NCBI GenBank assembly: GCA_032249395.1
Contig: JAVVFY010000003.1
Coordinates: 32,001-96,000 of the forward strand
From: Candidatus Aenigmatarchaeota archaeon
GTDB taxonomy: Archaea; Aenigmatarchaeota; Aenigmatarchaeia; CG10238-14; SpSt-28
DNA length: 64,000 nucleotides
Direction: 5' to 3'
The position numbers were made by a program, and so were the translations under genes. This document shows positions 30,521-47,931 of the stretch, piece by piece. The first letter of the stretch is position 1; each line of letters begins with the position of its first letter. The notes beneath the pieces are model-generated. The model did no database searches, was not told the DNA's origin, and saw only the letters and a program-made list of their open reading frames with translations.

Positions 30521-33333
30521 ATTGAAAAATAAATAGCCGGCTTGAAAGGTTCTGCTTTTTTTGCTTTTTCTAATCCACTCCTTTCTTCAAAAGTAATTAT
30601 TATCTTTGCTCCAGCCTCTTTCTCCAAAATTTCCCTTGCCTCTTCTAAAAGCTTAACTTCTTCTTTCCTTGATAGAATTTTTAATGATTCCCTTTCTCTT
30701 TCAATCTTCTTATAGAACTTCGCAACCATTTCTTTTTCTTCTGGCCCAAAATTTTCTAGTAAGCTCTTTAATTCAACCTTTTCTCCTCTCACGATTTTTC
30801 TAACCAAATCAAATTTCCATTTGGCAGCAATTATTATATCTACTTCTTTTGGAGCTCCTCCAGCCAATTTCTTTACTTGCTTTATGTCTTCTATTAAAGA
30901 TTTTATGTATTCTTCACCTAAAATTGCTTTCTCATCAACTCTTTTAAACCTTGGTAAACCTTCTTGAAATACAAACTTCTTTCCACCGAGCATTCTCCAA
31001 AACTCCTCAGACAAATGTGGAATTAGAGGAGAAACCAATATTACAAATTTCTTTAAAACATCTTTCATTATCTTTCCGTTACCGTTTTTAATATCCCCTA
31101 CCCTTTTAAAATACCACTCTAAATCGTTTAAAAATTCGAAAAATAAAAGTTGAGTAGACGTTCTAAACTTAAGATTTTCGTAGGCGTTTATAACGTCTTT
31201 ACCTATTTTATTTATTTTGGCCAACAAAAATCTATCAACATTTCTATTTTTCTTAGATTTCATTCTTTTCAACGACTTAATGAGAGAAAATAAAAAATTC
31301 AGCCTCTCTAAAAATACCTTAACATTTTCTCCTCTCCAATCAGCGTCGCTTAATCCTTCAGCTGAAGAGATTATATTTATTCTTGTTAAATCGCTCCCGA
31401 ATTCCTCTAACAAACGAAATAGAGGAATTATGTTTCCTTTGCTTTTGCTCATTTTTTCTCCCGCAATATTAACAAAACCATTTACAGCTATTGCTTTAGG
31501 CCAATATTTTTTATTCCAAATTGCAGTATGATGAAAAAGATAAAATGTTAAATGATTCTGAACTAAATCTTTTGCGGATGACCTTAAATCTACAGGATAA
31601 AAGTATTCAAACTCTTCCCTCATCTTTTTCAAAAGACTTTCTTTAATTCCATATCTCTTAGCTATTTTATTACAATTACCTTTTCCTAAGAATATGAAAT
31701 CGAAGACTTCGTCACTCAATTTATCTGCTGGTATATTTTTCAAATGATGGAAAATTGTATAGAAAGCCATGTATATGGTTGAATCGCTTAAAGTTTCAAT
31801 AATCCATTCTTTATCCCATGGTAACTTTGTTCCTAATCCTGTTTTTCGGGCGCAAGCTTTGTTTTCTAACCAATCAACAGTATTTATAAATTGTTGTCTT
31901 ATTTCTTCTGGATAAAACTTCATCATATTTATGCATTCTTTAACTTTTTTCTTCCATTCCTCATCAGAAAATTTTAAGAACCATTGATTCTCTAGTATCT
32001 TTACGTGACATCTTGTATTACATCTACAAACCACTAAACCTGTGGTTTCCCAAATAAAATCTAAAGCATTAATCGCTTTTAATAATTCAACGGTTTTCTC
32101 TTTTGCTTCTCTAACTGGTAAGTCTTTAAATTTGTCTACAATCATCTTTCCTTTGTGAAACTCTCTCTTGTAAACTTCTTGAGTAGCCAATTCTAATTTT
32201 TCGAATTGCTCTTGATTTTCTATATTATAAGCTTTACAAGCTTCTTCGGCCGGAATACCCTTGTAATCTTCCAGTTCTATTATCTTCTTTGGTTTAATTT
32301 TCTCTATGTTTAATTCTTTTCCAATTTCACTCTTTTTCAAATCTTCTAAAGCAATAAAATCGTAAGGAGCATGAGCAGGCACAGACATAACAATCCCTGT
32401 ACCAAATTCTAAATCTATAAATTTCGCAGGCAATATTGGTACTTTCTCTCTTGTTACAGGATTTTCTGTTAGTTTACCAACCAAAGAGCTTGAGTTTATT
32501 TTTTCTAATTCTTCAACGCTTCTTAACTGATCTCTTAATTTTTCTACAGTCTTTTTGCTAACTATCCACTTTTCTCCATTTACTTTTGCTAATACATATT
32601 CTTCATTAGGTTTAATCCAAATGTTTGTAACACCGAAAATAGTTTCTGGTCTTAAAGTAGCACATGGTAAAATTTCCCCGCTATCTAGCCTGAATTTTAT
32701 TACGTAAAACTGAATCGGACTTTCCCCTTCTCCTTTCAACCTATCATGATCCCCAGTTGGGCTTTGGCAATGTGGGCACCATATTACCGGATGAGTTCCT
32801 TGAACAACATAGCCTTTCTTTCTTAAAGTATTATATTGCCATTCAATGAATTTGTTGTAATGAGGAGTAATAGCAGTTATGAATGTTCTTCTCCAATCTA
32901 TACTCATTCCGCATCTTCTCAAGTCTTCTATCCATCTATTCATCCAGTATTTAGCAACAAATTCTGGTCCTTTCTCAACAAAATTTTTTATATCTTCGTC
33001 GCTTGCCCCAAAAAGTTTAAAAGTTTCTATTTGCGTTTCGTCATTTTGTTTAATTCTCTCTATAACACCCAATATAGGCTCTCCTGTGGCATGAAAGCCT
33101 TGAGGAAAAAGAACGTTAAAGCCTTGTAGTCTTTTGAATCTTGCAAAAGAATCAGCCCTAAAAAAAGAAAATGTATGACCAATATGAGGTGCCCCATTTA
33201 CGTAGGGATATGGAAATGTTACGAAAAACTTTTTTCTTTTATTATCAACATTTGCTTCGAAAACTTTTGTTTTTTCCCATTTTTTTTGCCATTTCTCTTC
33301 TATTTTTTTGATTTCTTCAAAAGTCAAATTCAT
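30517..33333 (-). CDS. leuS: Leucyl-tRNA synthetase (archaeal type)
   Basis: FPYPYVNGAPHIGH, ATLRPET, GTGIVMSVPAHAPYD, KMSKSKGN. Confidence 0.97.
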   Translation of the reverse strand: MNLTFEEIKKIEEKWQKKWEKTKVFEANVDNKRKKFFVTFPYPYVNGAPHIGHTFSFFRADSFARFKRLQGFNVLFPQGFHATGEPILGVIERIKQNDETQIETFKLFGASDEDIKNFVEKGPEFVAKYWMNRWIEDLRRCGMSIDWRRTFITAITPHYNKFIEWQYNTLRKKGYVVQGTHPVIWCPHCQSPTGDHDRLKGEGESPIQFYVIKFRLDSGEILPCATLRPETIFGVTNIWIKPNEEYVLAKVNGEKWIVSKKTVEKLRDQLRSVEELEKINSSSLVGKLTENPVTREKVPILPAKFIDLEFGTGIVMSVPAHAPYDFIALEDLKKSEIGKELNIEKIKPKKIIELEDYKGIPAEEACKAYNIENQEQFEKLELATQEVYKREFHKGKMIVDKFKDLPVREAKEKTVELLKAINALDFIWETTGLVVCRCNTRCHVKILENQWFLKFSDEEWKKKVKECINMMKFYPEEIRQQFINTVDWLENKACARKTGLGTKLPWDKEWIIETLSDSTIYMAFYTIFHHLKNIPADKLSDEVFDFIFLGKGNCNKIAKRYGIKESLLKKMREEFEYFYPVDLRSSAKDLVQNHLTFYLFHHTAIWNKKYWPKAIAVNGFVNIAGEKMSKSKGNIIPLFRLLEEFGSDLTRINIISSAEGLSDADWRGENVKVFLERLNFLFSLIKSLKRMKSKKNRNVDRFLLAKINKIGKDVINAYENLKFRTSTQLLFFEFLNDLEWYFKRVGDIKNGNGKIMKDVLKKFVILVSPLIPHLSEEFWRMLGGKKFVFQEGLPRFKRVDEKAILGEEYIKSLIEDIKQVKKLAGGAPKEVDIIIAAKWKFDLVRKIVRGEKVELKSLLENFGPEEKEMVAKFYKKIERERESLKILSRKEEVKLLEEAREILEKEAGAKIIITFEERSGLEKAKKAEPFKPAIYFSI

Positions 33334-35413: not shown

Positions 35414-35659
35414 GTGAAGAAAGAAATAGATGTTTCTAAGCATGAATTAGTACCAAAACACGAAATAGTTAGCGAAAAGGAAAAAGAAGAACTAATAAAG
35501 AAGTATGGAAGTATAAAGAATTTTCCTAGAATTTTGTCGACAGATCCTCAAGTAAAATTATTAAATGCAAAACCAGGAGATGTTATAAAAATAAGAAGGT
35601 ATAATGATGTAACGGGAGAATCAATATACTATAGAGTAGTTGTAGAGGTGAAAGAATAA
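35414..35659 (+). CDS. rpoH: RNA polymerase subunit Rpo5 (H)
   Basis: HELVPKHEI, FPRILSTDP, GDVIKIRR, YYRVV; GAGGTG SD and GTG start. Confidence 0.95.
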   Translation: MKKEIDVSKHELVPKHEIVSEKEKEELIKKYGSIKNFPRILSTDPQVKLLNAKPGDVIKIRRYNDVTGESIYYRVVVEVKE

Positions 35660-37149
35660 TGGAAAATGTTTTCACAATTCTAATGAAGTCCTATCTTAGA
35701 GAAAAAGGACTAGTAAATTTTCAAATAGAGTCCTTTAATGAGTTCGTCGAAAAAAGGCTACCAAAATTAATAAAGAGTATTGGAAAAATAAAGCCAGAAC
35801 TTCCTGAAATTGGGGAGTTAGAAATAAAGCTTGGTAAATTTGAGCTTGGGGAGCCAAGAGTTAAAGAAGCTGATGGCTCTATAAGAAAGATATATCCAAT
35901 GGAAGCGAGAATAAGGAATTTGACATATTCAGCACCAATGTACGTTGAAATGACCCAAGTATTAAATGGAATAGAAAGTAAACCAACAATGGTTGAAATA
36001 GGCGATCTACCAATAATGGTGAAATCTAAATTTTGCCCTTTATCGAGAATGAGTAGAAAAGAGCTTATAGAAATAGGAGAAGATCCTGATGATCCAGGAG
36101 GATATTTTATCATAAATGGTACGGAAAGAATTCTAATGCTTGTAGAAGAAATAGCAACTGACAGAATTATAGTAGAAAAAACTAAAGATTCTTCTGTTCC
36201 ACAAATAGCAAGAATACATTCTGAAAGGGAAGGATTTGTACAAAAACACTTAATAGAAAGAAAAAGAACTGGAGAAATTTATATAACATTTGCTAACATT
36301 CGTAGGATTCCTATAGTAATAATACTAAAGGCTTTAGGATTAGAAAAGGACAAAGAAATCTTAGAAGCCATATCTTTAGATGAAAGAATTCAAGAGTCAT
36401 TTTTAATTAACATTTTAGAATTTCCGATAAAAAATGGAGAAGAGGCTATAGATGAATTGGGTAAATACCTTAGGATTCCTCAAAAATCTATGAGAAAAAA
36501 ACAAGCAATAAGAATGATAGATAAGTATTTGCTACCTCATATTGGACAGGAGCCGGAAAATAGACTAGCCAAAGCTATGTTTATAGCCAAAGCTATAGAA
36601 AAAATTTTAAAACTTCACTTGGGCGAAATAGAAGAAGATGATGTAGATCACTATGCAAATAAGAGAATTAAAATGGCTGGAGACTTGTTGGAATTGCTCT
36701 TAAGGTCTATACTTTTGGGAAAATGGGGATTAATAGTTAGAATGAACTACAATTATCAAAAACTTGTAAAAAGAGGAAAATTGCCTCCCTTGCAAGCTGT
36801 AGTAGAAAACGCAATATTAACTAACCAAATAGTTTCAGCTATGGCCGTTGGAAGTTGGATAGGTGGAAGAACTGGGGTAACTCAGAGGCTTGAAAGAAGT
36901 AGTTGGAACAAAACTATAACTCATATGAGAAATATTGTCTCACCACTTTCTTCTACCCAAGAACATTTCGAAGCAAGAGAACTTCACCCTACTCATTTTG
37001 GTAAACTATGCGTAACTCAAACGCCAGAAGGAGCAAATATTGGTTTGAGAAAGTATCTTGCTATTAGTGCGACGATAACTCCTAAGATAGACAAAAAAGA
37101 TATAACTCCAATACTAGAGTTACTAGATTCTGTAAAGGTGAAAAAATGA
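35659..37149 (+). CDS. rpoB2: RNA polymerase subunit Rpo2N (B'')
   Basis: QIESFNEF, PMEARIRNLTYSAP, DPGGYFIINGTER, DHYANKR, RELHPTHFG, TPEGANIGL. Confidence 0.95.
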   Translation: MENVFTILMKSYLREKGLVNFQIESFNEFVEKRLPKLIKSIGKIKPELPEIGELEIKLGKFELGEPRVKEADGSIRKIYPMEARIRNLTYSAPMYVEMTQVLNGIESKPTMVEIGDLPIMVKSKFCPLSRMSRKELIEIGEDPDDPGGYFIINGTERILMLVEEIATDRIIVEKTKDSSVPQIARIHSEREGFVQKHLIERKRTGEIYITFANIRRIPIVIILKALGLEKDKEILEAISLDERIQESFLINILEFPIKNGEEAIDELGKYLRIPQKSMRKKQAIRMIDKYLLPHIGQEPENRLAKAMFIAKAIEKILKLHLGEIEEDDVDHYANKRIKMAGDLLELLLRSILLGKWGLIVRMNYNYQKLVKRGKLPPLQAVVENAILTNQIVSAMAVGSWIGGRTGVTQRLERSSWNKTITHMRNIVSPLSSTQEHFEARELHPTHFGKLCVTQTPEGANIGLRKYLAISATITPKIDKKDITPILELLDSVKVKK

Positions 37150-40100
37150 CAAGGGCTAGCGTTTTTCTAGATGGTGAATATTTGGGTGAAATTGAAAACC
37201 CTAAAGAATTCGTAGAAAGCGTTAGAAAAATGAGAAGGGAGGGAAAAATACCACCATTTGTTAATATTGCATACCATGCTCACTTAAATGAAGTAAGAAT
37301 TTTAACTTCGCCAGGAAGAGTAGTTAGACCTCTGATAGTTGTAGAAAATGGAGTTCCAAAATTAACAAAAGATATATTAGAAAAAGTGAGAAGGGGTGAA
37401 TTGAGTTTTTCTGATCTAGTGAAAAATGGAATTATTGAGTATTTGGATGCGGAAGAGGAGGAAAATGCTTATATTGCAATAAGACCTGAAGAAGTAACCA
37501 AAGAACACACACATTTAGAAATAGATCCTGCAGTAATTCTTGGTTTTTCCGCCCAATTTGTTCCTTATCCAGAATTTAATAGGGGAGATAGAGTTAATTA
37601 TGGAGCTAAAATGGGGGATCAATCTATAGGTATATTTGCGGCAAACTTTCTTAATAGAGTTGACAGCAAATCAAGCGTATTAGTTTACCCGCAAAAGCCG
37701 CTAGTACAGACATACATACATAAAATTCTAGACTATACAGAAAACTATCCCCATGGTGTTAATGTTGTAATAGCAGTAGCCACTTATGAAGGATACAATA
37801 TTGAAGATGCTATCGTTTTAAATAAGTCTTCGGTAGAAAGAGGTATGTTTTGGAGCTATATGTATAGAACTTATGAGACGGAAGAAAAAAGATATCTTGG
37901 TGGTCAAGAAGATATAATTGGAATACCACAACCAGGAATAAGAGGTTATGGTGGTGAGGAGGAATACAAACACCTTCCAGAAGATGGGATAGTAAATCCA
38001 GAAACCGAAGTACATTCAGATCAAGTTCTTATAGGAAAAACTTCTCCTCTAAGATTCTTAGGCAAAGCCGATATATTTTTAGCAGGAATGGAAAACTTAA
38101 GAGAAACGTCTGTAAGAGTAAGGCATGGTGATAAAGGAATAGTTGATAGAGTTTATTTAACTCAAACAACCGATGGTACAAAATTAGTTAAAGTTGTTGT
38201 TAGAGACTTGAAAAAACCAGAAATAGGCGATAAATTTGCTTCTAGACATGGACAAAAAGGAGTAATAGGGTTAGTGGTTCCTCATGAAGACATGCCATTT
38301 ACAGAAAGTGGTATTGTTCCTGATATTATTTTCAATCCTCATGGACTGCCATCTAGAATGACAGTTGGTCAACTTCTAGAAATTTTAGCAGGAAAAGTAG
38401 CGGCAATATCTGGAAGATACATAGATGCCCCAGCTTTTAATCCTACCAATGAAGAAGAGTTGAAAAACGTTCTGAAGAAATTAGGATTTGAAGAAAGTGG
38501 GAAAGAGATAATGTATGATGGCAAAACGGGAAGAAAATTCGAAGCTAAGATTTTCATAGGCTGTTCTTTCTATATGAAGTTGGATCACCTAGTTTCAAAT
38601 AAACTACAATCAAGAGCAAGAGGTCCTGTAACTTTATTAACGAAACAACCAACAGAAGGTAGAAGCAAAGAAGGTGGTTTAAGATTGGGTGAAATGGAAA
38701 AGGATTGTTTATTGGCTCATGGTGCTGTGCTAACTTTAAAAGAAAGATTCGATTCAGATAGAATTATTCTACCTGTTTGTAAGAAATGTGGAATGGTAGC
38801 TGTTCACGAAAAACCAAAAAACAGATATTTCTGTCCTGTATGCAAAGATGATGCAGAAATAACAAATGTTGAGATGACTCACGCTTTCAAATTACTATTG
38901 GATGAACTAAAGAGCTTGCTAATATATCCTAAGTTGGTTATTAACGATGAAGGAAAGATAAGCAAAATAGAATTCAGTATTCTAGATCCTGATACTATAA
39001 GAAAGATGGCGTTCGCTGATATAACTAAAATTGATATCTACGATGAAGAAGGATACCCTATAGAAGGAGGTGTTATGGATCCTAGATTAGGAACAGTAGA
39101 ACCTGGAATAAGATGTAGGGTTTGTGGAGGAAATGTTGGAGAGTGTCTAGGTCATTTTGGTAAAGTAGAACTTGTAAAACCTGTTATTCATCCTCACTAT
39201 GTCAAGTTTTTGCATTTTGTATTAAAAATAACATGTAGAAAATGCGGAAAACTTTTGATAGATGAGGAGACAAAAAAGAAAGGTAAGATATCGTGGAAAG
39301 AAATAGAGAAACTTGCGTTGAAAAAATGCCCATATTGTAATACTCAACAAAAAGAAATTAAATTAATTAAGCCATACATATTTATAGAAGGTAACAAAGT
39401 ATTAAATCAGGAGGAGATTAGAGAGAGGCTAGAGAAAATACCAAATGAGGACCTGAAGATACTTAATCTTAAAATAAGACCTGAATGGTTGATTCTAACA
39501 GTACTTCCAATACCTCCAGTAACTATAAGACCATCCATAACATTAGAAACTGGAGAAAGAAGCGAAGATGACTTAACCCATAAGCTGGTAGAGATAGTAA
39601 GAATTAACGACAGGCTTAGAGAAAATTTGGAGTTGGGAGCACCACAATTCTTATTGAACGATTTATGGGAGCTTCTACAATATCATGTAGCAACTTATTT
39701 TGATAATGAATTGTCTGGAGTTCCGCCAGCGAGACATAGATCTGGTAGGGTTTTAAAAACTCTAAGCCAAAGATTGAAAACGAAAGAAGGAAGATTTAGA
39801 GGAAACCTACTTGGAAAGAGAGTTAACTTCTGTGCAAGAACAGTTATTTCCCCCGACCCTAAAATTAAAATAAATGAAGTTGGTGTTCCACAAATAATAG
39901 CTAAAGATATAACAATTCCTATAAGAGTAGATGAGAGAAATATAGAAGAGTGTAGAAAACTTGTTTTGAACGGTCCTAATTGTTGGCCTGGTGCAAACTA
40001 CGTTATTAGACCTGATGGAAAGAGAAAAAGAATCTTAGAAACAAACAAAGAGGAAATAGCAAAAGAACTTGATGTTGGTTATATAGTTGAAAGACATTTA

Positions 40101-41435
40101 ATGGACGGAGATATTGTTATTTTTAACAGACAGCCAAGCCTGCATAGAATGAGCATGATGGCTCATAGAGTAAGAGTAATGCCATACCTAACTTTTAGAT
40201 TAAATGTAGCTGTCTGTCCGCCATACAATGCCGACTTTGATGGAGATGAGATGAACTTACATGTTCCACAAACAGAAGAAGCCAGAAGTGAAATAGATAT
40301 CCTTGCTTCGGTGGAAAAAAACATAAGAAGCCCGAGATACTCTGCTCCCATAATAGGACCAATAAGGGATGGGATAACTGGTCTATACTTGTTAACTAAA
40401 GACGGTAACAAGCTTAGCAGAAGAGATGCAATTAGATTGATAAGAAGCGTAGATACTGATGTAGAAATTCCGGAAAAGGATGAATTCACCGGTAAGGAAG
40501 TCTTTAGTATTCTACTACCTAAAGATTTCTCTATCGAATACAAAGGAAAAACAGGAATTGTAAAAATAGAAAATGGTAAACTTATAAAAGGTGAATTAGA
40601 AAAAAACGGAATAAGCGCGGACGGAGGAAAAATAATAGACAAAATAGAAAAATATTATGGAAGAGTGTTCGCTAGCGAATTCATTTATAAAATTCAGCTT
40701 TTAGGGATTAACTATCTGGACATGAAAGGATTTTCTCTTGGGATTACGGATTTGAGTATAGAAAAAAGAGTAAAAGAGGAGATACAGAAGATTATAGAAC
40801 AAACAGAAAGCGATATTAATAAAATGATTGAAAAATTCAACAAAGGAGAGCTAATTCCTATGATAGGGAGAACTACCGAGGAAACTTTAGAAAATATGAT
40901 AAAAGAAAGAATAGCTATGTGTTTGAATGAAAGCATGAGTGTATTAGAAAGAGGAATTAAAGAATCTCCAGCTTTAGATATGGTAAAATGCGGTGCTAGA
41001 GGAAGTTTAGTAAATCTCTTACAAATAGTTGGGTTAATTGGTCAGGAAATGATAATGGGCGAAAGAATAGAAAAAGGATATTATAAGAGGACTTTTCCTC
41101 ATTTTAAGATGAATGATATAAGTCCGGCATCCAAAGGTTTTGTTGCGCATGCTTTTAAAGATGGTTTAAACGTATTTGAATTCTACTTCGATAATATGAA
41201 CTCCAGAGAAAGTCTTATGGATAAAAGTTTAAAAACAAGGCACTCTGGTTATATGGAGAGAAGATTAGTCGGCGCTCTTCAAGATTTAAAAATCGCATAC
41301 GACGGAACAATAAGAGACGCCGCAAATAGAATAATTCAATTCGTTCCATTCGAGGATGGTCTAGACCCATCGAAAATTACTAGAGAAGGAATAAATGTTA
41401 GAGAAATAGCAAGGAGGATCTTCAATGCTTCCTAA
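37146..41435 (+). CDS. Fused RNA polymerase subunit Rpo2C-Rpo1N (B'-A')
   Basis: The first ~600 aa carry B' motifs ([31 protein letters not shown]). The remainder carries A' motifs ([38 protein letters not shown]). There is no stop and no in-frame Met at the junction (~38940). Confidence 0.93.
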
Positions 41436-42561
41436 AAAGATTTTAGAAGAGGTGGAAAAGGTCTCTAAAGAACTAAAACTTAATGAAGAAGATAAAAATA
41501 AATTGATAAAAGAAGTGGAAAAAGAATACCTTAATATGATGGCCGAACCTGGTGAAGCTGTAGGTATTTTGGCTGCTCAAAGTATTTCTGAACCAGCTAC
41601 TCAACTTACCATGAGAACTTATCACCTTGCTGGAGCTGCAGGAGTTAAGATTACATTTGGTTTACCAAGACTGATAGAGATATTCGATGCAAAAAGAAAC
41701 ATAGAAACCCCGATGATGACGATATATTTGAAAAAAGAATTTAACACTAAGGAAGAGGCGGAAAAAGTGGCATTTAAAATAGTTGAGAAGAGAGTTATAG
41801 ACCTATCTAGTTATATATCAATGGATATAGGAGAAACTTCCATTATTGTAGAACCTTCTGACAAAAGAAAAGCGGAAAAGATAGAAACGGCAATAAAAGA
41901 ATATTTAGGTAAGAAAGCAGAAGTAAGCACTAAAGAAGGCAAAATAATTGTTCGAGTCAAAGAGAAGGAAGTAAGTCTTTCAGATTTACAAAAAATAAAA
42001 GAAGATATCTGCAATATCGTTGTAGAGGGTATTCCTGGAGTAACAGCAGTAATAGTTAAAAAAGAAGGAGACGAATGGATTTTGCAAACTGTTGGATCAA
42101 ATCTAAAAGAAGTATTGAAACTCCCCGAAGTAAATGAACATAAAACGATATCTAACGACATTTTTGAGGTTTATGAAATTTTTGGAATTGAAGCAGCTAG
42201 AAATGTCATAATAAAAGAAGCTTACAAGACTATGCAAGAACAAGGATTAGATACAGATATAAGATATTTGCTGCTTTTGGCAGATGTGATGATATGGAGT
42301 GGAGAAATAAGCTCTATAGGAAGATATGGTGTGGCTGGTGCTAAGTTTTCGGTACTTTCAAGAGCTGCGTTTGAAGAAACAATAAAACATCTAATTAGAG
42401 CATCGATAAGAAATGAAGTTGATGAATTTAAAGGTTTGTTCGAAAATGTTATGATAGGTCAACCGGCACCAGTAGGTACTGGTATGTTTGAGCTATTAGT
42501 TAGAGGGGGAGAAGAAAATGAAAGTGGAGGAGATGGTGAAAAAAGCATTAAAGGAGAATAG
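41425..42561 (+). CDS. rpoA2: RNA polymerase subunit Rpo1C (A'')
   Basis: [58 protein letters not shown]. Confidence 0.95.
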
Positions 42562-44250: not shown

Positions 44251-47200
44251 ATGACTATGAAAAAAGAGATGATTGAAAGAATCAAAGAATGTATGAAGCA
44301 TCCGGAGAGAATAAGAAACGTTGCTACTAGTTCTCACGTTCACCATGGAAAATGTGTAAGTGGCGATACATTGATATTCCTAGAAGATAAAACCCTAACT
44401 GCAAAAGAACTTTTTGAGATAGCAAAAAAAGACGGCGTACTTTTAAAGAAGGATTTAGAGGAAATTTATAAACTTGCAGAACCTATAAGTGTACTAACCT
44501 ATAAGGACGGAGTAATTTCAAGAGGATTAATAACTCATGCATGGAAGATTAAGAATTTTGATAAATTGATAGAAGTTGAAACAAACGATGGGAGGAGAAT
44601 TAAAGTTACGCCAGAACATAAATTTTTGATTTTTAAGAACGGAAAAATATATGAAAAAGAGGCGAGAGATTTAAACAGGGGAGAGATTTTAGTTTTACCA
44701 AATGTTATTCCTTCAAAATCTATAGACCTAAAAGAGATTAAAACTTACTTTCTAAAGAAATTATCCGAAGATTATTCTTTTCTGGCTTACGTTAGCGATA
44801 ATTTAAAGAAAAAACTCCACAAGATTGTCATAGAGTATGGAAGAATGAAAATTCACAAAGAAATAAAAAGCAAAATAAAGCCTCTTTCCTTTTATCATGG
44901 TGTGTGGGGAGGCAGATACAGAATTTCCGACTTAATAAAGTTGGCAGAGAAATTCCAAGTTGATTTATCAGAAGTTTACGATAACATCGAATTCATTTCC
45001 TATAGAAAAGGAATAAAAAGATACGGTTCGAGAACCTCTATCAAATTAAAACTTCCTAAAAATGAAAAAGAATTTATTGAGTTCTTCTATTTACTTGGTC
45101 TTTTGTTTGGAGACGGAAGTGTAAATTTAACGTTTGATAACAATAATCCAAAACTTTTAGAAAAGGTTGTTAAAATCTGTAGAGAAATTCTTGGAACATC
45201 TCCAGTACTTAAAAAGTATAAAAATAAGTGTCCACGAGTTTATTTGAATGGCGGATTTACATTAAAGTTTTTCCTCAATAAAGTGTTTGATTATCCGTTG
45301 AAGTCAAAAGCCAAAAATCTCAGAATTCCTTGTATTTTATTCAATTTGCCACTTCATTTCATTTCAAGTTTCATAAGAGGATACTTTGATACAGATGGTT
45401 CTGTGCATCAAACCGTCTACCTTTCTTCGGCAAGTAGAGAAGTATTAGAAGGCATAAAACTTTTGCTATTAAGGTTTGGATGTCACTCTTATATAAGAGA
45501 GAAAATTGCAAGTATTAAAGATAGAAAATATAGAGAATTTGTATTACACATTTCTGGAAGGATTGACCTCGAAAGATTTATTCATTTTATAGGTTTTGGA
45601 GTAGATTACAAACAAAAAAAGCTTGAAAGGCTCCACTTGAATGCTTCTTTTAGCAAAGTTTTTGATACAATTAAAATAGAGCTACCATTCATAAAGATGG
45701 TTGAAAATCAAATAGCTCTTTTACCTGTGGTTAATGTTAGAGAAGTTTATGGTGAGGATTTTGTTTATGATTTTACAGTTGAAGAAACACATAACTTCCT
45801 TGCAAATGGCTTCTTCATTCATAATACAACTCTAACTGACAACCTAATGGCTGGGGCCGGAATGCTAGCAGAAGAGATGGCTGGTAAAGTGATGTATACC
45901 TGGTTTGATCCGGAGGAAAGAAAGAGACAATTGACTGTTTATGGAGCAAACGTTAGCATGGTACACGAATATGAAGGTCAAGACTATTTGATAAATTTGC
46001 TAGATACTCCTGGTCACGTAGATTTTGGTGGCGACGTTACAAAAGCTATGAGAGCTGCAGATGGAACAATAGTTTTAGTAGATGCAGTAGAAGGAGTAAT
46101 GCCACAAACCGAAACTGTATTTAGACAGGCTTTAAGAGAGTATGTTAAACCAGTATTATTTATTAATAAAACTGACAGACTGATAAAGGAATTAAAGTTA
46201 ACTCCAGAACAAATGATGGAAAGATTTGAAAGAATAATAAAGGATGTTAATGGATTGATTGACAAATATTGTCCACCAGAATTCAAAGGAAAATGGTATG
46301 TTAGTGTAAAAGATGGTAGCGTAGCTATTGGTAGTGCTTTCAAAAGATGGGCAATTTCTATTCCTTATTTACAAAAAAGCGGAGTAACTTTGAAAGAAGT
46401 TATTCAACTAACATTAGAAGGAAAAGAAGAAGAATTAGCTAAAAAGGCTCCTTTACATCAAGTTGTTTTGGATATGATTATTAGACATCTTCCTTCTCCT
46501 GTAGAAGCACAAAAATATAGAATTCCAAAAATTTGGAAAGGAGATATCGAAAGCGAAATTGGAAAACAGATGTTAAATTGTGATTCGAATGGAAGATTAG
46601 CCGCAATAGTAACTAAAATGATCCCAGACGAGCATGTAGGTTTTGTTGCTACAGCAAGAATATTTTCTGGTAAAATATTCAAAGGAAAAGAAATATATCT
46701 GGTAAACTCCAAAAAGAAAGAAAAAGTTCAACAGGTAGCAGTTTTCAAAGGAATAAACAGAGTTCCTGTGGATGAAGTTACCGCTGGGAACGTAGTAGCT
46801 ATTGTAGGAATACCCGAAGCTTTTACTGGAGAAACGATTTGTGATGTAGATTATACGATAGAACCATTCGCAGAAATAAAACACATTTTCGAACCAGTTG
46901 TTACAAAATCCATAGAGCCTAAAAATCCTATGGATTTACCAAAACTTGTTGATGCATTGAGAAAAATTGGAAAAGAAGATCCCACGCTAATCGTTAAGAT
47001 TAATCAGGAAACTGGAGAATATCTTGTTTCTGGCTTAGGTGAATTACACCTAGAAATTAAAGTAGAACACAAGTTGAAAGATATGGGAATCGATGTTGAG
47101 TTGTCTCCACCAATAGTAGTTTATAGAGAAACAATTCTTAAACCTTCCCCAATGGTAGAAGGAAAATCCCCAAATAAACACAACAAACTCTATTTCATTG

Positions 47201-47931
47201 TTGAACCATTAGAAGATGGTGTTTATGAAGCCATGAGAGCTGGAGAGATACCAAGCACGATTGAAGTAAAGAAGAAGAATTTGGAACTATTTCAAAAATT
47301 AGAAAAAGCTGGTATGAAAGGGGAAGATGCGAGAAACGTATTGCTTATTTACAATAAAAATGTTTTCATCGATCAAACAAAAGGAGTACAGTTCTTGTTA
47401 GAGGCAATTGAAATGATTAAAGAGGCGTTTAAAGAAGTTATGGATGATGGTCCATTAGCAAGAGAACCTTGCATGAAGCTTAAAGTAAAATTGGTAGATG
47501 CTGAATTACATGAAGATCCTGTACACAGAGGCCCTGGTCAGATAATGCCGGCTGTAAGGTACGCTATAAGACAAGCTATGTTGTTAGCAGGTGCCTTGCT
47601 ATATGAACCTAAACAAATCTTGAGAATAGATATTCCGAATGAGAATATGGGAATTGTAGTGAGGGAAATAGAAAATAGAAGAGGTAGCATTCTAGAAATG
47701 AAAGAAGAAGGAGAAACAATGACAATAATGGCAAAGATACCCGTTTCCGAGTTGTTTGGATTTGATGCAAAACTTAAATCTTTAACTAGCGGTAGGGGAT
47801 TTTATAGTCTTGTTGACATAGTTTTTGAAAAGTTACCAGACGAACTAAGAGAACAGACAATAAAATCAATAAGAAAAAGGAAAGGTCTGCCTGAAGAGAT
47901 CCCTAAAGCTGAAGCTGAGCCGGTCTCTTAG
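44251..47931 (+). CDS. fusA: Elongation factor 2 precursor containing an intein (mature ~735 aa)
   Basis: HHGK|intein|TTLTDNL, INLLDTPGHVDFGGDV, NKTD, GLGELHLE, diphthamide loop HEDPVHRGPGQ. Confidence 0.96.
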   Translation: MTMKKEMIERIKECMKHPERIRNVATSSHVHHGKCVSGDTLIFLEDKTLTAKELFEIAKKDGVLLKKDLEEIYKLAEPISVLTYKDGVISRGLITHAWKIKNFDKLIEVETNDGRRIKVTPEHKFLIFKNGKIYEKEARDLNRGEILVLPNVIPSKSIDLKEIKTYFLKKLSEDYSFLAYVSDNLKKKLHKIVIEYGRMKIHKEIKSKIKPLSFYHGVWGGRYRISDLIKLAEKFQVDLSEVYDNIEFISYRKGIKRYGSRTSIKLKLPKNEKEFIEFFYLLGLLFGDGSVNLTFDNNNPKLLEKVVKICREILGTSPVLKKYKNKCPRVYLNGGFTLKFFLNKVFDYPLKSKAKNLRIPCILFNLPLHFISSFIRGYFDTDGSVHQTVYLSSASREVLEGIKLLLLRFGCHSYIREKIASIKDRKYREFVLHISGRIDLERFIHFIGFGVDYKQKKLERLHLNASFSKVFDTIKIELPFIKMVENQIALLPVVNVREVYGEDFVYDFTVEETHNFLANGFFIHNTTLTDNLMAGAGMLAEEMAGKVMYTWFDPEERKRQLTVYGANVSMVHEYEGQDYLINLLDTPGHVDFGGDVTKAMRAADGTIVLVDAVEGVMPQTETVFRQALREYVKPVLFINKTDRLIKELKLTPEQMMERFERIIKDVNGLIDKYCPPEFKGKWYVSVKDGSVAIGSAFKRWAISIPYLQKSGVTLKEVIQLTLEGKEEELAKKAPLHQVVLDMIIRHLPSPVEAQKYRIPKIWKGDIESEIGKQMLNCDSNGRLAAIVTKMIPDEHVGFVATARIFSGKIFKGKEIYLVNSKKKEKVQQVAVFKGINRVPVDEVTAGNVVAIVGIPEAFTGETICDVDYTIEPFAEIKHIFEPVVTKSIEPKNPMDLPKLVDALRKIGKEDPTLIVKINQETGEYLVSGLGELHLEIKVEHKLKDMGIDVELSPPIVVYRETILKPSPMVEGKSPNKHNKLYFIVEPLEDGVYEAMRAGEIPSTIEVKKKNLELFQKLEKAGMKGEDARNVLLIYNKNVFIDQTKGVQFLLEAIEMIKEAFKEVMDDGPLAREPCMKLKVKLVDAELHEDPVHRGPGQIMPAVRYAIRQAMLLAGALLYEPKQILRIDIPNENMGIVVREIENRRGSILEMKEEGETMTIMAKIPVSELFGFDAKLKSLTSGRGFYSLVDIVFEKLPDELREQTIKSIRKRKGLPEEIPKAEAEPVS
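44353..45825 (+). mobile_element. Intein (491 aa) with LAGLIDADG homing endonuclease inserted in the EF-2 P-loop
   Basis: Begins CVSGDT; block B VTPEHKF; endonuclease motifs LLGLLFGDGS and FIRGYFDTDGS; ends VYDFTVEETHNFLANGFFIHN followed by Thr(+1). Confidence 0.95.

Follow-up and report, generated by a model that had tools for sequence, protein, structure and literature searches.

An in-frame fusion of the B' and A' RNA polymerase genes in Candidatus Aenigmatarchaeota archaeon and its recurrence within the phylum

The window analyzed here is a stretch of 64,000 nucleotides from Candidatus Aenigmatarchaeota archaeon (assembly GCA_032249395.1, contig JAVVFY010000003.1, forward-strand positions 32,001 to 96,000). 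It contains, at 37146..41435 (+), an open reading frame (ORF) in which the C-terminal half of the second-largest RNA polymerase (RNAP) subunit, B', is continuous with the N-terminal two-thirds of the largest subunit, A'. The genes for B' and A' are normally separate in archaea. Here, a single frame starts with ATG, encodes 1429 amino acids, and ends in a stop codon, with zero internal stops. As the window is AT-rich (about 30 to 36% G+C) and stop triplets are common in such DNA, a frame of 1,429 codons is not credible as a chance occurrence. Both moieties score above the NCBIfam equivalog cutoffs for the archaeal subunits, and the profiles are covered almost completely: residues 6 to 601 match positions 1 to 597 of 599 of the B' profile TIGR03670 (rpoB_arch; 883.3 bits, cutoff 811), residues 603 to 1427 match positions 7 to 879 of 883 of the A' profile NF006336 (1121 bits, cutoff 819), and residues 604 to 1413 match TIGR02390, also for A' (1090.2 bits, cutoff 1042.55). 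The order of the Pfam domains is Rpb2 domains 4 to 7 and then, directly, Rpb1 domains 1 to 5. The B' moiety (residues 1 to 601; 37146..38948 (+)) includes the C-terminal clamp zinc ribbon and comprises PF04566, PF04567, PF00562, and PF04560, while the A' moiety (residues 604 to 1429 plus the stop; 38955..41435 (+)) comprises PF04997, PF00623, PF04983, PF05000, and the start of domain 5, PF04998. The linker at the junction consists of N600, D601, E602, and G603 (38943..38954 (+); codons AAC GAT GAA GGA). An earlier reading made from the letters alone, called the sequence-only reading below, had described the end of Rpo2C as running through NDEG into the start of Rpo1N without a stop, and this description is exact, since positions 38940 to 38957 form a single frame, ATT (I599, 38940 to 38942) AAC GAT GAA GGA AAG (K604). 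It had also placed both catalytic domains on one chain. Indeed, Rpb2 domain 6 (PF00562, residues 136 to 508) and Rpb1 domain 2 (PF00623, residues 890 to 1055), which contain the two double-psi barrels of RNAP, both lie in the fused ORF, and the translation carries, inside PF00623, the active-site motif NADFDGD, the catalytic aspartate motif that defines the A' subunit.

The junction is open in all nine species-level genomes of the window's genus, the window's own included, with uninterrupted frames of 1430 to 1449 amino acids and 77 to 87% protein identity to the junction query. In an alignment of six genus sequences, gaps occur only at columns 199, 314, 709 to 711, and 1090, the nearest being about 100 columns from the junction, and the linker reads N/D-D/E-E-G in all six. 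Between the window and five congeners, the proportion of synonymous differences (pS) over the whole gene is 0.70 to 0.77, that is, saturated, and the proportion of nonsynonymous differences (pN) is 0.08 to 0.13; within 30 codons on either side of the junction, pS is 0.65 to 0.92 and pN is 0.08 to 0.14. Since pN is low while synonymous sites are saturated, the fused frame, linker included, is under purifying selection. The junction stretch (1,101 bases) is also present in public runs labeled hot springs metagenome, where the bridging evidence consists of assembled contigs rather than raw reads. Contigs from three other DNA studies, none flagged as the possible source, bridge the junction with 0 gaps and 0 to 1 substitutions (X3 covers the whole 1,101 bases, X4 covers 38768 to 39189, and X6 covers 38663 to 39160). 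A contig from an RNA library (X15, 38829 to 38990) bridges it as well, with four differing letters and no gaps; three of the four differences could be placed, all at third codon positions, and those in linker codons, at 38948 and 38954, are synonymous. Support across the junction, which the sequence-only reading wanted examined for a stop or frameshift, thus revealed neither a gap nor an indel. The source genome, a metagenome bin with 752,806 bp on 25 contigs and a completeness of 89.5%, contains one match each for PF00623 and PF00562, both within the fused ORF. Altogether, the fused gene is real and conserved and probably functional. We estimate a probability of roughly 85% that the B'-A' gene is a genuine, in-frame, inherited fusion, with B' and A' forming one predicted polypeptide of 1,429 residues and the enzyme core consisting of three large pieces (B'', B'-A', and A'') rather than four.

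The fused gene belongs to a cluster of RNAP genes that starts with rpoH (Rpo5; 35414..35659 (+); 81 amino acids; Pfam PF01191, RNA_pol_Rpb5_C, E value of 4.9e-25). The N-terminal half of Rpo2 is encoded by a gene of its own, rpoB'' (35659..37149 (+); 496 amino acids; NF007175, 536.4 bits, cutoff 355), which spans positions 14 to 502 of the full-length B profile NF006335 (NCBIfam). Likewise, rpoA'' (Rpo1C; 41425..42561 (+); 378 amino acids) is a separate gene, matched by Pfam PF04998 with an E value of 7.2e-48 and scoring 406.1 bits against TIGR02389, slightly under the cutoff of 420.65. With rpoB'' and rpoA'' confirmed as ORFs of their own, each overlapping the fused gene, the three-piece B''/B'-A'/A'' architecture put forward in the sequence-only reading is real. 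At the B''/B' boundary, the 4-nucleotide overlap ATGA holds the B'' stop (TGA) and the B' ATG, with GGTGA closely upstream; at the A'/A'' boundary, the overlap is 11 nucleotides and AGGAGG lies upstream of the A'' ATG. With these features, both retained splits resemble gene pairs with ordinary translational coupling. In contrast to the retained B' and A'' starts, the fused junction of the window has no GGAGG or GGTGA motif. Elsewhere in the window, an elongation factor 2 gene (44251..47931 (+); 1226 amino acids) owes its length to an intein with a LAGLIDADG homing-endonuclease domain, located within the GTPase domain (Pfam layout, Intein_splicing at 44 to 525 and LAGLIDADG_3 at 371 to 448, with GTP_EFTU resuming at 526).

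We searched 371 Aenigmatarchaeota genomes with a 400-residue query centered on the junction and obtained matches in 346. A full-span match without a stop, which we score as fused, was found in 63 of the 346 genomes, and a full-span match with at least one stop, meaning that B' and A' share a frame with a stop between them, was found in 39; five others gave partial-span matches with stops, and the remainder matched as two separate pieces. In the window's family, the fused state is present in 9/9 genomes of genus g1, 7/7 of g2, 1/1 of g3, and 0/2 of g4. Several genera contain mixed states; g15, for example, has two fused members (G033 and G126) and nine split ones. The open junction in 63 of 346 genomes contradicts the idea, raised in the sequence-only reading, that the fusion is peculiar to this reduced archaeon. 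The related proposal of a lineage marker stands at about the genus level (nine of nine species) but fails across the phylum, given that frequency, the mixed genera, and the trees described below. The fusion is not DPANN-wide either: in Nanoarchaeota, our DPANN control phylum (151 genomes sampled around one with that label on its record), none of the 146 matching genomes had an open junction and 15 of 15 full-span matches contained stops. Apparent long frames in this phylum were frames read through stops, and the 11 genomes that we fetched were all split at the junction. Loci L071 to L100 and L154 to L164, labeled Nanoarchaeota or Woesearchaeota, very often have B' and A' in the same frame with one stop or a few codons between them, a layout that mimics fusion in tblastn. 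Candidate fusions labeled Woesearchaeota, Nanoarchaeota, or Parvarchaeota among the best 80 tblastn loci were rejected, as all have a stop at the junction within the same frame. A locus titled Micrarchaeota (L056) was rejected as a fusion outside the phylum because its genome lies inside the Aenigmatarchaeota survey (the G374 coordinates equal G067). Disagreement between record labels and sequence placement extends to fused loci titled Heimdallarchaeota (L036) and Nanohaloarchaea (L083) and to a 73%-identical protein titled Woesearchaeota (P0017).

A script classed 134 fetched loci as fused (52), interrupted by an in-frame stop (44), or in different frames (38). These proportions describe a nonrandom set, which contains the 80 best-scoring matches and so favors fused and same-frame forms, 40 loci added from the survey tables, nearly all split relatives, with L138 to L140 chosen for unusual frame lengths, and 13 further loci from the window's family and same-frame cases. 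Among the fused loci, 40 of 52 have a split B like the window, and the other 12 have an unsplit B, with B-A' frames of 1916 to 1941 amino acids. Of the 134 classed loci, 23 have an unsplit B, and these fall into two separate clades. One Aenigmatarchaeota genome (L140; G228:C18:3000-13000, locus on the minus strand) combines an unsplit B of 1102 amino acids, a single in-frame stop, and a fused A'-A'' of 1188 amino acids. Because this locus adds a fused A'/A'' to the variation at B''/B' and B'/A', all three large-subunit junctions vary in the phylum. In protein databases, a word-indexed search returned 1,300 proteins, and each of the best 120 extends across the junction; those that carry a name appear only as "subunit A'" or "subunit B." A search of 1.84 billion cluster representatives yielded one close fused representative (P0008), a number unsuited to counting fusions because relatives probably collapse at 50% identity.

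Phylogenetic trees were computed from concatenated B' and A' after removal of 10 residues on each side of the junction, of truncated or broken rows (L022, L041, L054, L059, L073, L079, L090, L092, L097, L122, and L139), and of duplicates (L149 and L150). On the FastTree topology (121 rows), the minimum number of state changes is 16, or 14 with branches below 95 collapsed and 8 when only branches with a support of 100 are kept. On a quick IQ-TREE topology (LG+G4; 83 rows from the window's order and six outgroups), the corresponding numbers are 14, 13, and 7. Thus, the fusion state has changed at least 13 to 16 times on these unrooted trees. When the 37 fused rows of the order, a group defined by the trait itself after inspection of a tree, are constrained to be monophyletic, the log-likelihood falls by 1,680 units (approximately unbiased test, P value of 2e-6), and a single clade of fused forms is rejected. 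The members of the window's genus, all of them fused, form a clade with full support. The IQ-TREE topology places L111, a split locus from the same family, as sister to this clade (Shimodaira-Hasegawa-like approximate likelihood ratio support of 97), and the FastTree topology places the pair formed by L037 (fused) and L105 (split) there. Since the trees are unrooted, they do not distinguish gains from losses. The linkers, however, are unrelated between fused clades: N-D-E-G in the window and K-D-N-T-V-E, N-E-E-E-R-T-V-D, K-E-D-K-M-S-V-D, D-E-N-L-M-K-V-G, or D-K-D-L-G-K-I-V-G in others, which argues for several independent gains.

The split relatives suggest how the two genes could have merged. 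In 17 of them that we compared, B' ends in YPK-x-x-x-x-E-E-stop, and the stop overlaps the A' ATG (ATGA, TAATG) or lies within a few nucleotides of it; two of the 17 (L151 and L114) have a longer gap between stop and ATG, of about 20 to over 40 nucleotides. In same-frame forms, the stop stands directly before the ATG or a few codons intervene. Split relatives also carry a GAGG or GGTGA motif in the final B' codons; loss of such a Shine-Dalgarno motif was judged for the window only, as Glu and Gly codons are purine rich in fused and split states alike. Between the conserved P-K-x-x-x and I-E-F, the window has 8 residues, compared with 3 + 5 in the split loci L101 and L107, so that the join adds or removes no length. 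A stop-to-sense change or an indel of 1 to 2 nucleotides at an overlapping or abutting B' stop and A' start would merge the frames and leave the length of the connection unchanged. Some fused lineages keep the former A' Met in frame, as in two of the linkers listed above (K-E-D-K-M-S-V-D and D-E-N-L-M-K-V-G). G603 of the window aligns with the initiator Met of A' in split L111 and may correspond to the old start. The exact mutation that produced the window's fusion is not reconstructable, since the fusion is older than the genus and synonymous change has reached saturation.

Whether such a join fits the enzyme was evaluated by modeling residues 401 to 900 with AlphaFold2 from an alignment of 36 fused sequences, a structural check of the clamp that had been proposed with the sequence-only reading. 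The junction is modeled as a strand (model residues 193 to 199), a short turn, and a second strand (205 to 212), with mean values of the predicted local distance difference test (pLDDT) of 87, 84, and 91 for successive blocks of residues 191 to 220. A Foldseek search of the PDB ranked 3qqc_A first (E value of 1.8e-30; 48% identity over 370 columns; template modeling score of 0.76, normalized to target length), with archaeal Rpo1N chains and Pol II Rpb1 next. According to the accessible text of PMC3094117 (Martinez-Rucobo et al. 2011), 3QQC is a recombinant clamp of Pyrococcus furiosus in which B 1053-1115, A' 3-318, and A'' 334-371 are connected by short Gly/Ala/Ser linkers; the authors obtained soluble protein, judged its fold to be correct, and observed binding to Spt4/5. 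With phmmer, residues 544 to 680 of the window protein align with 3qqc_A in one stretch across the join (E value of 1.7e-50), the natural N-D-E-G-K standing opposite S-E-G-G-K of the construct. In Pyrococcus, B continues for 3 residues beyond its aligned part and A' has 7 ahead of its own, a distance that the window bridges with 4. By this experimental precedent, which is a domain construct, joining the B C terminus to the A' N terminus by a few residues is compatible with a native clamp. According to the model and the engineered protein, the C-terminal strand of B' and the N-terminal strand of A' would run next to each other in the clamp, where the four-residue N-D-E-G turn would suffice to connect them and the enzyme should work as usual.

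With regard to assembly, the accessible text of PMC13556214 describes a stepwise process for Methanococcus RNAP, in which a platform of Rpo3/11/10/12 is joined by Rpo2 and then by Rpo1 with Rpo5/6, and reports that assembly is sensitive to subunit imbalance. A fused chain would fix the B':A' ratio at 1:1, would allow the two catalytic pieces that form the clamp to assemble in cis, and would make the clamp contact intramolecular. We infer that the fusion is probably close to neutral or slightly beneficial, and this could explain the many state flips in the phylum. The existence of sister species that differ in state (for example, L043/L108 and L035/L135) fits near-neutrality, while retention in whole genera, together with absence from the sampled Nanoarchaeota despite their same-frame layout, hints at lineage-specific tolerance or benefit.

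A stronger interpretation is that the fusion is a repeatedly selected, convergent adaptation that provides, for example, a 1:1 ratio of B' to A' and cotranslational assembly of the clamp in cells whose capacity for chaperoning and regulation is minimal. The number of state changes, the unrelated linkers, the persistence of the fusion through saturating divergence in whole genera (9/9 in g1, 7/7 in g2), and the stoichiometry-sensitive assembly just described all speak for it, as do the 146 unfused Nanoarchaeota genomes, since many of them have the same frame and a single stop and opportunity alone therefore seems insufficient. On the other hand, close relatives such as these sister pairs differ in state at no visible cost, the unrooted trees allow either direction of change, and the coupling of overlapping stop and start codons would already give near-equal synthesis in split forms. 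On balance, we regard recurrent selection as a real but doubtful possibility. A broader and more speculative proposal, which we find rather unlikely, is that the boundaries of large RNAP genes are unusually fluid in Aenigmatarchaeota at all three junctions, that repeated B'-A' fusion reflects convergent selection for assembly in cis, and that single-stop lineages are intermediates making some fusion protein by read-through. If this proposal was true, the phylum would be a series of natural experiments in cutting and joining a multisubunit polymerase.

Alternatively, the gene may be fused while two proteins are made, either by an endoprotease cutting at the linker or by an internal ribosome start. 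The in-frame former A' Met of some fused lineages (L034, L039, and L063) and TTG or GTG codons near the junction in some members of the genus are in line with this possibility. However, the six genus sequences share no in-frame ATG, GTG, or TTG at a common position beside the junction, and the window's junction is devoid of the GGAGG/GGTGA motifs seen before the retained B' and A'' starts. Moreover, a four-residue turn packed between two strands, as in the model, would be a poor protease site, and the bacterial counterparts, which yield a single chain, are described as fused genes. We thus consider the production of two proteins improbable. Least credible of all, with an artifact or a decaying gene being very unlikely, is that a missed base or a chimeric join masks a stop or frameshift between two ordinary genes, since, even though the genome was binned from a metagenome and lies in 25 contigs and the fused and split states of close relatives differ by a single-base indel, the junction is open in nine of nine separately assembled species of the genus, shows no indel in the bridging contigs (three other DNA studies, one RNA library), encodes a linker conserved despite saturated synonymous sites, and has fused equivalents in 63 Aenigmatarchaeota genomes and in 120 or more database clusters.

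Several considerations nonetheless weigh against our preferred interpretation, that of an inherited fusion gene encoding a single functional chain. The overall quality of the clamp model is moderate (mean pLDDT of 65.4, predicted template modeling score of 0.61, 145 residues below 50). The RNA library that produced contig X15 may contain DNA, and the contig proves neither transcription nor translation. All of the genomes are metagenome bins, and at 89.5% completeness a second copy on the missing DNA is possible. Posttranslational cleavage of the 1,429-residue chain, or an additional internal A' start at a noncanonical codon, may be compatible with the data. Finally, any benefit of the fusion is conjecture, and frequent state changes fit neutrality as well as advantage.

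In a few bacteria, the two largest RNAP subunits are fused, an oddity familiar from textbooks. The sequence-only reading compared the window with bacterial beta-beta' fusions, and the comparison is apt: the accessible text of PMC7483510, citing Lane and Darst (2010) and Zakharova et al., states that rpoB and rpoC are fused in Helicobacteraceae and Wolbachia. In both cases, the C terminus of the second-largest subunit is joined to the N terminus of the largest, the gene pair is adjacent in relatives, and the account of the bacterial genes in that text matches the fused and overlapping forms that we see in Aenigmatarchaeota. The archaeal fusion differs in the domain of life and the type of enzyme, in joining only the C-terminal half of B to the N-terminal two-thirds of A, and in being scattered within one phylum, whereas the bacterial fusion is fixed in a family. 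Consistent with these differences, the window protein falls outside the bacterial fused-subunit equivalogs, with 345.9 bits against a cutoff of 5372 for NF007172 and 343.3 against 4632 for NF011417. The P. furiosus clamp (3QQC chain A) has the same termini joined in the same order by a short linker, but it is an isolated domain construct with an A'' piece, artificial linkers, and no transcription test, whereas the window holds a natural full-length gene.

Among archaea, we found no paper describing a B'-A' or B-A' fusion in the full-text literature searched, which omits most subscription journals. Da Cunha et al. (2017) distinguish A from A'A'' types, report a secondary fusion in Pacearchaeota, and call such events rare; the accessible text of that article (PMC5484517) makes no mention of a B-A' join. 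The window resembles the A/A'A'' and B/B''B' variation in that the large-subunit genes are cut at differing sites, but it joins two different subunits, whereas the junction in those cases lies inside one ancestral subunit. The rarity of splits and fusions given in the accessible text of PMC5484517 also contrasts with at least 13 to 16 B'/A' changes within one phylum. The whole-B-A' chains of other Aenigmatarchaeota (12 loci) are fused at the same B'/A' junction as the window, but their B is unsplit, which leaves two large pieces, whereas the window keeps the B''/B' split. Three further proteins deserve mention. P0147 (2214 amino acids), on one Logan contig of 18,722 bp, consists of a whole Rpb2-like part (domains 1 to 7, residues 23 to 1065) followed by a whole Rpb1-like part (domains 1 to 5, ending at residue 2162). 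Across the junction, it shares 35% identity with the window; among solved structures, archaeal Rpo2 and Rpo1N and Pol II Rpb1 are its closest relatives. P0147 forms a singleton cluster, and no relative was found in genome-contig or viral-contig collections. P0236 (1665 amino acids; on 10 contigs; named RPB2 by one source) resembles P0147 but ends within Rpb1 domain 2. P0130 (1025 amino acids) comprises a complete B' (domains 4 to 7, to residue 595) and about 430 residues without an RNAP domain, with a weak, sub-cutoff HTH_23 match, and could be another kind of fusion or a miscalled gene.

Together, our results establish that the B'-A' fusion is a variant of known RNAP subunit fusions that is recurrent in Aenigmatarchaeota and serves as a marker only at about the genus level. 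It is a natural archaeal counterpart in a Pol II-related enzyme, showing that there, too, the C terminus of B and the N terminus of A can be covalently linked, and for structural biology it provides a clamp that is tethered naturally. The frequency of state changes contradicts the view (PMC5484517) that RNAP splits and fusions are so rare that they can be used as deep phylogenetic characters. For annotation, where databases name these proteins after one subunit only, marker pipelines that expect separate RpoB and RpoA may mishandle the fused forms. Lastly, pairs of sister species that are fused and split constitute a clean system for studying the effects of tethering on the assembly or the stoichiometry of the enzyme.

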